From: a virus
Lineage: Duplodnaviria > Caudoviricetes
Strand: one strand, 5' to 3'
DNA length: 64,000 nucleotides
Virus record (IMG/VR): IMGVR_UViG_3300042673_001351
Span: 1-64,000 of that record
Shown here: in pieces, positions 58,214 through 58,358 of the stretch
Position numbering within the stretch: position 1 is the first letter of the stretch
Layout: every line of letters begins with the position of its first letter
Notes under the pieces: generated by a model
Told to the model about the DNA's origin: nothing
Databases searched by the model: none
The model's input: the letters and a program-made list of their open reading frames with translations, nothing else
Translations under genes and position numbers: made by a program

Positions 58214-58222
58214 TGATATAAT
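58214..58222 (+). promoter_or_regulatory. Extended -10 promoter of the candidate sRNA
   Basis: TGA-TATAAT with no TGTCRG element upstream. Confidence 0.65.
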
Positions 58223-58228
58223 ATTAAT

Positions 58229-58358
58229 AGGCCATGGTGCCTATTATATGAAGGGTGCATCTACTCTAGGTGCTAAGTAAAGCAGGTTTTTCCTTTCGTT
58301 GAGGTCCTAGCAGCCCTTCTCTTAACCCCCGTGACTCTAAGCATGGGGGTTTAGCTTT
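58229..58358 (+). ncRNA. Candidate trans-acting sRNA antisense to the shared early RBS
   Basis: No ORF; nested stems; unpaired TTTTTCCTTTCGTTGA; 3' terminator-like hairpin. Confidence 0.65.

Follow-up and report, generated by a model that had tools for sequence, protein, structure and literature searches.

Early-gene shut-off is understood in no more than a few model phages, in which it is brought about by proteins such as RegA and RegB of T4. A short non-coding segment in the genome of a virus of the Caudoviricetes raises the question whether an RNA could close the expression of an early-gene class instead. The segment lies at approximately 58227-58358 on the plus strand of the first 64 kb of the 82.6-kb IMG/VR record IMGVR_UViG_3300042673_001351 (completeness estimate 76 %; G+C approximately 30-41 %), and these 64,000 nt are referred to here as the window. 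An earlier, sequence-only reading of the window took the segment for a trans-acting RNA which imitates the 3' end of 16S ribosomal RNA and displays the only antisense copy of a word found in the leaders of early genes. Based on comparison with related loci, we find the segment to be a real, conserved and structured non-coding RNA gene, with a loop complementary to the leaders of an early-gene class. That the RNA acts in trans, occluding the ribosome-binding site of this class and thus closing its translation, has in our estimate a probability of roughly 50 %.

Results

The leader word and its antisense copy

The window contains 11 matches to the word AACGAAAGGA, ten on the plus strand and one on the minus strand (58291-58300); 0.11 matches were expected, and none of 100 shuffles reached 11. 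These counts confirm that a sole antisense copy faces ten exact sense copies. The longer pairings that had been reported for individual leaders, a 14-nt match at 51526 and a 13-nt match at 56001, are both present. The minus-strand motif is followed by no ATG, GTG or TTG at the distance of a ribosome-binding site, and a coding reading of this motif was rejected. The 8-nt word AACGAAAG occurs 12 times on the plus strand of the 82.6-kb record, always inside 49.8-59.3 kb, and once on the minus strand, with approximately 0.9 copies expected per strand.

The leaders carrying the plus-strand copies, which are the proposed targets of the RNA, form a block of 9.4 kb (49839-59263). Each copy sits 4-17 nt ahead of the start codon of a small gene, and most are found 8-14 nt after a TATAAT hexamer. 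A C precedes 11 of the 13 GAAAGGA sites in the record, and the other genes of the record, according to our own crude gene caller, have mostly sites of the AAGGAG or GGAGG type. PHROGs gave no function for eight of the ten proteins of the target class that were scanned. Two leader variants, AACGAAAGAAGGA (50018-50039) and AACGAAAGGTCAAC (52215-52233), keep AACGAAAG and have an altered ribosome-site core; they resemble the leaders of related clades in which the loop of the RNA lacks CC.

Promoters of the PafBC type occur at five places in the window (Table 1). One account gives the PafBC consensus as tGTCgg(N10)tA(N3)T and describes it as that of a hybrid promoter, in which the -35 element is missing (PMC8635444). 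Across 190 loci of the family there were 952 distinct sites of this type on the strand of the RNA and 5 on the other strand. CGAAAG was found within 30 nt of 613 of the 952, in 524 of these 613 cases as AACGAAAG. When leaders were picked only for CGAAAG, A was present at position -2 in 88-99 % and at position -1 in 76-90 % of them. The best-conserved stretch of the leader is AACGAAAG, and the GGA core of the ribosome-binding site, 3' of the complement of the loop octamer, is less fixed. The early leader class is real, in this record it is restricted to the block described above, and it is tied to promoters fitting the PafBC consensus. It appears, as predicted from these sites, that the phages drive their early genes from promoters of the host DNA-damage-response type. 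A literature search at the title level found no paper saying that phage early genes are driven by PafBC.

A conserved three-way-junction RNA

The segment is preceded by a gene for a 135-aa protein, and with this protein as the query 70 related viral loci were fetched. The 303-nt intergenic region is 67-91 % identical in most of them. The core words GGTGC ... TAA-TAA-GC ... GCAGCC were found by pattern in 67 loci and in two more with a covariance model. Every one of the 69 loci with sequence at this place carries the RNA, and the 70th stops at a contig edge.

The family alignment consisted of 46 distinct cores aligned with MAFFT, the rows being picked by the neighbouring protein and not by motif, and RNAalifold folded it into a three-way junction. 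In the family, P1 has 7 bp including an invariant terminal U.G pair, P2 has 5 bp and in most relatives an inserted hairpin, and P3 has 5 bp, with one A bulging out and 19-30 nt in its loop; J2/3 is an 8-nt stretch of the UAAGUAAA type. The nucleotides of the junction, GGUGC, UAA-UAA-GC and GCAGCC, are invariant. Pairing was intact in 94.2 % of 881 cells, compared to 78.0 % in shuffled alignments and 27.6-48.6 % when the partners were slid. Double changes were found in 139 cells compared to 40, and the covariation score was reached by none of 500 shuffles. In a second set of 81 sequences, fitted to the covariance model, 94.2 % of the pairs were intact compared to 75.0 % after shuffling.

The terminal U.G pair of P1 is present in all 46 rows, and other G.U pairs in 28 and 12 of them. 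Read on the other strand these pairs would be C.A mismatches, and judged by them the RNA is therefore encoded on the plus strand. The fold that had been drawn from the single sequence is in part corrected by the alignment. P1 stands, the long-range CTAGG/CCTAG stem gives way to the local hairpin P2, for which there is covariation, and P3 takes the form GCAGG/CC-U-(A)-GC. As a whole, the conservation and covariation bear out a discrete, structured plus-strand RNA with a loop complementary to the early leader.

The covariance model had one strong hit in the whole record (window and remainder) and found one copy in each of the two complete relatives, genomes of 111 and 113 kb. Among the 80 loci listed it matched one site per locus, as it did in the window. 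A motif scan of IMG/VR found the RNA on at least 119 viral contigs, and its arrangement with promoters and leaders was seen in at least 190 related loci of freshwater actinophages, which are abundant and for the most part uncultured. A scan of 185,579 bacterial species genomes gave seven hits, three of which were true copies. All three were on 3-kb contigs of metagenome-assembled genomes, labelled Bacteroidia, Polynucleobacter and 'bacterium' (L074, L077 and L079). Promoter-leader cassettes were also present on a few phage-looking contigs of such genomes (G001 C6, C51, C57, C106 and C174). These contigs are probably mis-binned pieces of phage genomes, and no host-encoded copy of the RNA was found among the species genomes scanned. 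The three metagenome-assembled genomes with true copies contain no 16S gene.

In 34 of the 46 distinct relatives stops interrupt the core in each of the six frames, and its lengths are not multiples of three. A coding reading of the core was rejected, as no frame is conserved on either strand, and a 36-aa plus-strand open reading frame (58383-58493) was rejected as a gene because its ATG is not conserved. The description of the segment as approximately 130 nt without an open reading frame agrees with the predicted RNA. Rfam 15 had no hit at the gathering score in 58150-58560, and at E-values up to 10 it had only chance-level hits outside the core (CRISPR-DR31, E 0.95; PK-PYVV, E 4.4). ARAGORN found no transfer RNA (tRNA) or transfer-messenger RNA (tmRNA) at the locus, and in the window as a whole it found a tRNA-Asp and nothing else. 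A tmRNA was rejected for the locus, where RF00023 had no match either. No description of such an RNA was found in Rfam 15 or by full-text literature searching at the level of titles and abstracts.

Predicted promoter and terminator of the RNA

Predicted in silico, the RNA has its own promoter and terminator and forms a discrete transcription unit. Both the extended -10 and the terminal hairpin noted earlier are present (Table 1). A simple promoter and terminator scan missed the two elements in the window, the tail of the terminator being too T-poor. The transcription unit was surveyed in 125 distinct loci of the family having full flanks. A -10-like hexamer was found just upstream in 91 of these, a TGn extended -10 (TGn-TANNNT) in 84, a 5' hairpin of -4 kcal/mol or better directly after the promoter in 89, and a G+C-rich hairpin with a T-run downstream in 111. 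The stem of the 5' hairpin shows compensatory changes in relatives, for example AGGCC/GGCCU, GGUCC/GGACC and CGGGC/GCCCG. The remaining 34 loci showed no hexamer of the -10 type; in them the structure directly borders on the upstream gene, from the 3' end of which the RNA would come.

The promoter had been described as having no PafBC element. Under the strict consensus this holds, as none of 87 distinct regions upstream with TGnTANNNT carries the full TGTC[AG]G-N10 element. However, 39 of the 87 have a GTC triplet at exactly the PafBC spacing, and in 8, the window among them, the triplet is shifted by one base towards the -10. Because of the 39 relatives, independence of the RNA promoter from PafBC is likely, not certain. 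The GTC triplet of the window (58202-58204) coincides with the final codons of the 135-aa gene, and coding constraints may account for it.

Predicted accessibility of the loop and its complementarity to the leaders

All 46 rows of the family alignment carry the loop sequence CTTTCGTT unchanged, and two further loci (L049 and L053) also have it; in the sets obtained by motif scan its invariance is by construction. The invariant octamer CUUUCGUU complements AACGAAAG, and the longer form of the loop in this phage is UUUUUCCUUUCGUUG. The mean predicted unpaired probability (n = 87) was 0.66 for the loop compared to 0.40 for the rest of the molecule, with a median opening energy of 1.7 kcal/mol. 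In the minimum free energy fold of the window RNA, CCUU of the loop pairs with GAGG, UCGUU and the U-run are open, and opening of the seed costs 3.1 kcal/mol. Across the family the loop is predicted to be open.

In a crude duplex calculation on the window, the loop paired with the leader-bearing start regions at -16 to -24 kcal/mol, the median over 140 start regions being -10.65 kcal/mol. A few non-leader sites of the AAAGGAGG type reach -18 kcal/mol. In view of these sites, the sparing of late genes of the GGAG type that had been suggested is not clear-cut.

The loops of the family fall into clades with UUCC...GAG (A), AAUUCC (B), UUAC...GGU (C) and UUUC...GGA (E). At the facing position, 93-95 % of distinct leaders carry G when the loop has CC; when it has AC or UC, 71-72 % carry G and 23-25 % carry A. 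Position -4 of the leader is C in 63 % in clade C, compared to 43-49 % in clades A and B, which fits the GG after CGUU in the clade C loop. In a double-centred matrix of mean duplex energies the cognate clade blocks are favoured by approximately 0.5-0.8 kcal/mol. At the clade level this pattern agrees with co-evolution of loop and leader. Co-variation of seed and ribosome-binding site in relatives had been put forward as a check, and it is seen as clade-level tracking at the facing base but not at other flank positions.

In four bacterial genomes, which are relatives of one such metagenome-assembled genome with a copy of the RNA rather than established hosts, the 16S tail reads ...CCTCCTTTCTAAGGAG and shares only UCCUUUC with the loop. 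The tails continue UCUAAGGAG and not CGUU, and the C of CGAAAGG in the leader has no partner in them. The two Cs of the loop that face the GG of the ribosome-binding site vary among clades (UUCC, UUUC, UUAC). The idea that the RNA is a mimic of the 16S 3' end is accordingly not supported. Because the invariant part of the loop, CUUUCGUU, misses the core of the ribosome-binding site, the RNA, judged by its sequence, reads the 5' extension of the leader rather than imitating the ribosome.

Two cultured distant relatives had no match to the covariance model in their whole records (the search was run with three positive controls) and no enrichment of the leader; AACGAAAGG sites numbered 4 and 2+2 in approximately 130 kb each. 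The cultured lake phage DSL-LC01, a phage of Actinomycetia, has a homologue of the 135-aa protein with 42 % identity, followed by TATAAT and an CGACGAAAGGA leader (L216 2930-3010). Its 129 kb contain no match to the RNA model and only four AACGAAAGG sites.

Small shares of the 4.5-kb region are contained in six metatranscriptome runs, and fragments of the early block were present in all four that were examined.

Source phage and neighbouring features

A gene for a WhiB-family protein is located at 75041-75214 on the minus strand of the record; among 14 control genomes the family was matched in Corynebacterium only. Distant homologues of the 135-aa gene were found in 39 records, all phages of Streptomyces, Gordonia, Nocardia and a lake 'Actinomycetia bacterium', and the sequencing runs containing window sequence are lake or freshwater metagenomes. 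The source virus is therefore a freshwater actinophage. Cultured phages gave no match to 57800-58900 in blastn at a distant setting. Phages isolated on 'Ca. Nanopelagicales' have been reported (PMC10202952).

The tRNA-Asp (GTC) gene, found by ARAGORN and Rfam, is situated centrally in the early block (55824-55898, plus strand), 2.4 kb upstream of the RNA. A cluster of auxiliary-looking genes at 38580-45056 encodes a ribonucleotide reductase-like protein (643 aa), a GT4 glycosyltransferase, a sulfotransferase-like protein and a cytochrome P450 (E 4.8e-68).

Between the terminator of the RNA and the next promoter comes another conserved non-coding block (58352-58468, plus strand). Its boxes read TTGCCCnCA...GAGGGTA, TTTACGG and GTCAA, and approximately 12 nt before the PafBC box it also contains an inverted repeat with covariation, GGTGTG-AAA-CACACC (58438-58452). 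RNAalifold found no consensus RNA structure (0 pairs) in 58357-58476. From its sequence the block looks like a set of DNA-level regulatory sites.

Table 1 Coordinates in the window of the RNA gene, its parts and the associated features
Feature	Position	Strand	Basis
135-aa gene, always precedes the RNA	57804-58211	+	Synteny
Extended -10 promoter TGATATAAT, overlaps end of 135-aa gene (stop codon 58209-58211)	58214-58222	+	Sequence
5' hairpin AUAGGC/GCCUAU, 6-nt loop, at or next to predicted transcript start	58227-58244	+	Fold
Three-way-junction core	58250-58319	+	Family alignment, RNAalifold, pair counts
P1 (GAAGGGU/GCCCUUC)	58250-58256 with 58313-58319	+	Covariation
P2, local hairpin	58257-58273	+	Covariation
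J2/3, UAAGUAAA, 8 nt	58274-58281	+	Alignment
P3 (GCAGG/CC-U-(A)-GC)	58282-58286 with 58306-58311	+	Covariation
P3 loop UUUUUCCUUUCGUUGAGGU	58287-58305	+	Contains octamer and 10-mer
10-mer of the earlier reading, TCCTTTCGTT	58291-58300	+	Sequence
Invariant loop octamer CUUUCGUU	58293-58300	+	Family alignment
Single 3' junction base A58312	58312	+	Alignment/fold
Intrinsic-terminator-like hairpin AACCCCCGTG/CATGGGGGTT (58324-58351; 10-bp stem, 8-nt loop), then UUUAGCUUU	58324-58358	+	Fold
PafBC-type promoter TGTCGG-N10-TATAAT of gene after the RNA	58469-58490	+	Consensus fit
Variant leader AGCGAAAGGA of next gene after the RNA	58500-58509, ATG 58515	+	Sequence
AACGAAAG leaders, proposed targets	49839, 50018, 51138, 51527, 52215, 53381, 53697, 53868, 54772, 56003, 56761, 59254	+	Exact word
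AACGAAAGGA copies	49839, 51138, 51527, 53381, 53697, 53868, 54772, 56003, 56761, 59254	+	Exact match
PafBC-type promoters TGTC[AG]G-N10-TATAAT	51108, 51493, 53667, 54736, 58469	+	Consensus fit

Discussion

The comparison shows the gene, its fold and strand, its conservation, the accessibility of the loop and the complementarity to a class-specific leader; from these we infer synthesis of the RNA, its pairing with the leaders in vivo and repression as the outcome. In the proposed mechanism an RNA of approximately 130 nt would be transcribed from its own extended -10, with a hairpin capping its 5' end and an intrinsic terminator forming its 3' end. The three-way junction would present a large loop, in which the invariant CUUUCGUU, extended to UUUUUCCUUUCGUUG in this phage, could pair with AACGAAAG(GA). 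The resulting duplex of 8-14 bp would cover the ribosome-binding site and would be expected to beat the approximately 7 bp formed with the ribosome, and for that reason an accumulating RNA would block initiation. Decay of the messages would probably be accelerated, and as the whole leader class would be affected at once, early expression would close.

Several observations weigh against this mechanism. The co-variation of loop and leader rests essentially on one phylogenetic split, clades A and B compared to C and E. Beyond the core of 8-11 nt the leader flanks do not track those of the loop (position -3 in B; position +9 in A and B), and the clade C loop has an A opposite a leader G at every site. 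CGAAAG is missing after 339 of the 952 PafBC-type promoters. The seed of the window RNA is half sequestered in a local stem of 4 bp. Approximately one quarter of the family members are without a promoter of their own and approximately one tenth without a terminator. Of the four metatranscriptome contig sets, one covers the locus, with a single 307-nt contig (58128-58398, depth 4.3); the other three gave no coverage of 58114-58716 at 90 % identity or more, which has no bearing either way. This contig starts within the upstream gene and ends 40 nt past the terminator; it carries no information on strand or transcript ends and may derive from DNA carry-over. Finally, the invariance of the junction exceeds what a mere holder of the seed would need, and it hints at a protein or ligand partner.

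It is possible, though unlikely, that the RNA is the guide of a ribonucleoprotein, in which the junction would be the handle for a protein, plausibly the 135-aa protein, and the loop would direct cleavage, repression or protection of the AACGAAAG leaders. This explanation is kept alive because the junction is invariant, while its stems covary, and the 135-aa gene is strictly adjacent. The gene lies upstream of the RNA in 101 of 104 loci found by motif, and abuts it in two more, whereas the downstream gene is conserved in 10 of 93. The protein is itself highly conserved, with a mean column identity of 79 % and invariant H22 and D77-N78-E79-H80. It could not be placed in a family or fold with Pfam, the ESM Atlas, an AlphaFold2 model (predicted local distance difference test score 73.4), Foldseek against the PDB (best E 0.46) or structure comparison (best Z 3.6), and no RNA-binding fold is thus at hand for such a partner.

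Relatives of the 135-aa protein in cultured phages have only 31-42 % identity, and all are from actinophages. In Streptomyces phage CeilingFan a tmRNA, also a structured RNA, comes 20 nt after the homologue (gene 195, 31.6 % identity; L217 2001-2697). A search with RF00023 finds this tmRNA at 94.7 bits; our covariance model finds nothing in this phage. The likeness lies in a structured RNA gene directly downstream of the 135-aa homologue, but the window RNA has neither a tRNA-like end nor a tag reading frame. The adjacency may also be plain gene order in a region rich in RNA genes, as suggested by the tRNA-Asp gene near the window RNA and by the tRNAs around the CeilingFan locus, and DSL-LC01 has the protein without the RNA. 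The 135-aa protein is a possible partner of the RNA, or else the RNA may be the 3' untranslated region of its gene. That the two together make up a minimal RNA-guided complex, the junction being the handle and the octamer a fixed guide to AACGAAAG-tagged messages, we regard as decidedly unlikely. If true, it would be a programmable, class-wide post-transcriptional switch set atop promoters borrowed from the host PafBC response.

We consider it quite improbable that the RNA is a cis element, that is, a 3' untranslated region, stabiliser or terminator module of the 135-aa transcript, with a match to the leaders that has no role in trans. The strict linkage to the upstream gene would be explained in this way, as would the 34 promoterless loci in which the structure abuts the gene, and the lone RNA contig joins the end of the gene and the RNA. 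However, 84 of the 125 loci have an extended -10 and a 5' hairpin exactly at the stop of the gene. A stabiliser would also leave unexplained an invariant octamer that complements the most over-represented leader word of the genome. Small RNAs derived from 3' untranslated regions are, moreover, known to act in trans.

A host-directed RNA or mimic of the 16S tail, the loop of which would bind host ribosome-binding sites or a host factor and shut down host translation, is highly improbable. The UCCUUUC shared with the 16S tails and the AAAGGAGG-type non-leader sites at -18 kcal/mol would fit it, but the invariant CUUUCGUU runs away from the core of the ribosome-binding site, the Cs facing GG differ between clades, and the four tails, which are not from established hosts, diverge from the loop at CGUU. 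There is hardly any chance that the RNA is a ligand- or signal-sensing (riboswitch-like), catalytic or structural RNA with the loop as part of a fold or platform controlling downstream read-through: a junction with invariant bases is followed by a terminator and a conserved non-coding block, but Rfam offers no match even at E-values up to 10, a separate PafBC-type promoter for the next gene stands ahead of its start codon and after the terminator, the block has no consensus structure, and the downstream gene is poorly conserved.

Among known systems, a trans-acting RNA of the proposed kind appears closest to the c4 immunity RNA of phages P1 and P7 (RF01695), and it resembles the CI RNA of P4 as well. 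All are small structured phage RNAs; the loops of the known ones pair with leaders of the phage itself, with repression as the outcome, and both pairing and repression are proposed here. By definition c4 is processed from the leader of the operon that it represses and has two loops complementary to two leader sites, and its binding site covers the ribosome-binding site of icd. The RNA described here was rejected as a c4-type immunity RNA, as it has one complementary loop, its own promoter and leaders dispersed over 9.4 kb. It also matches no RF01695 model, and the host phylum differs. Whereas c4 acts on one operon, which is also its source, one loop would here face at least 12 dispersed putative targets with a common leader. 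According to the literature cited here, c4 antisense RNA is needed for full repression of ant and has its binding site within the operon (PMC8198154), and a table assigns c4 to Proteobacteria and phages of these (PMC2864571).

In T4, as one account has it, RegB cuts the GGAG ribosome-binding sites of early transcripts and RegA competes with ribosomes on approximately 30 mRNAs (PMC3014915). Both phage factors act on translation-initiation regions and in this way close a whole class of early messages, as proposed here for the RNA. They are, however, proteins and not an RNA, and the site is loose and A/U-rich there, compared to the exact word AACGAAAG here. The case for calling the RNA a counterpart of RegA and RegB, by analogy, is evenly balanced. 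The 6C RNA of actinobacteria and RsaE/RoxS of Firmicutes have C/U-rich seeds pairing with ribosome-binding sites. They share with the present RNA a single-stranded pyrimidine-rich loop, a stable scaffold ending in a terminator, and numerous ribosome-site targets, putative in this case. In contrast to them, the present RNA is encoded by a phage, its putative targets are genes of the phage itself, and the seed appears to read the leader extension 5' of the core. If confirmed, the RNA would be a new family, and an undescribed example of base-pairing regulatory RNA, a kind that is otherwise known.

The family alignment and the covariance model make the idea directly testable. If it is confirmed, a promoter, a leader tag and the matching RNA would together provide a compact building block for synthetic gene control in actinobacteria. 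For the phages, it appears that a single small RNA addresses an entire early class by way of the 8-nt word that its leaders share. If confirmed, this would be a new RNA family and an RNA-based switch from early to late expression, and it would be a rare base-pairing regulator in its phylum, the actinobacteria, which to our knowledge is without the usual RNA chaperones.

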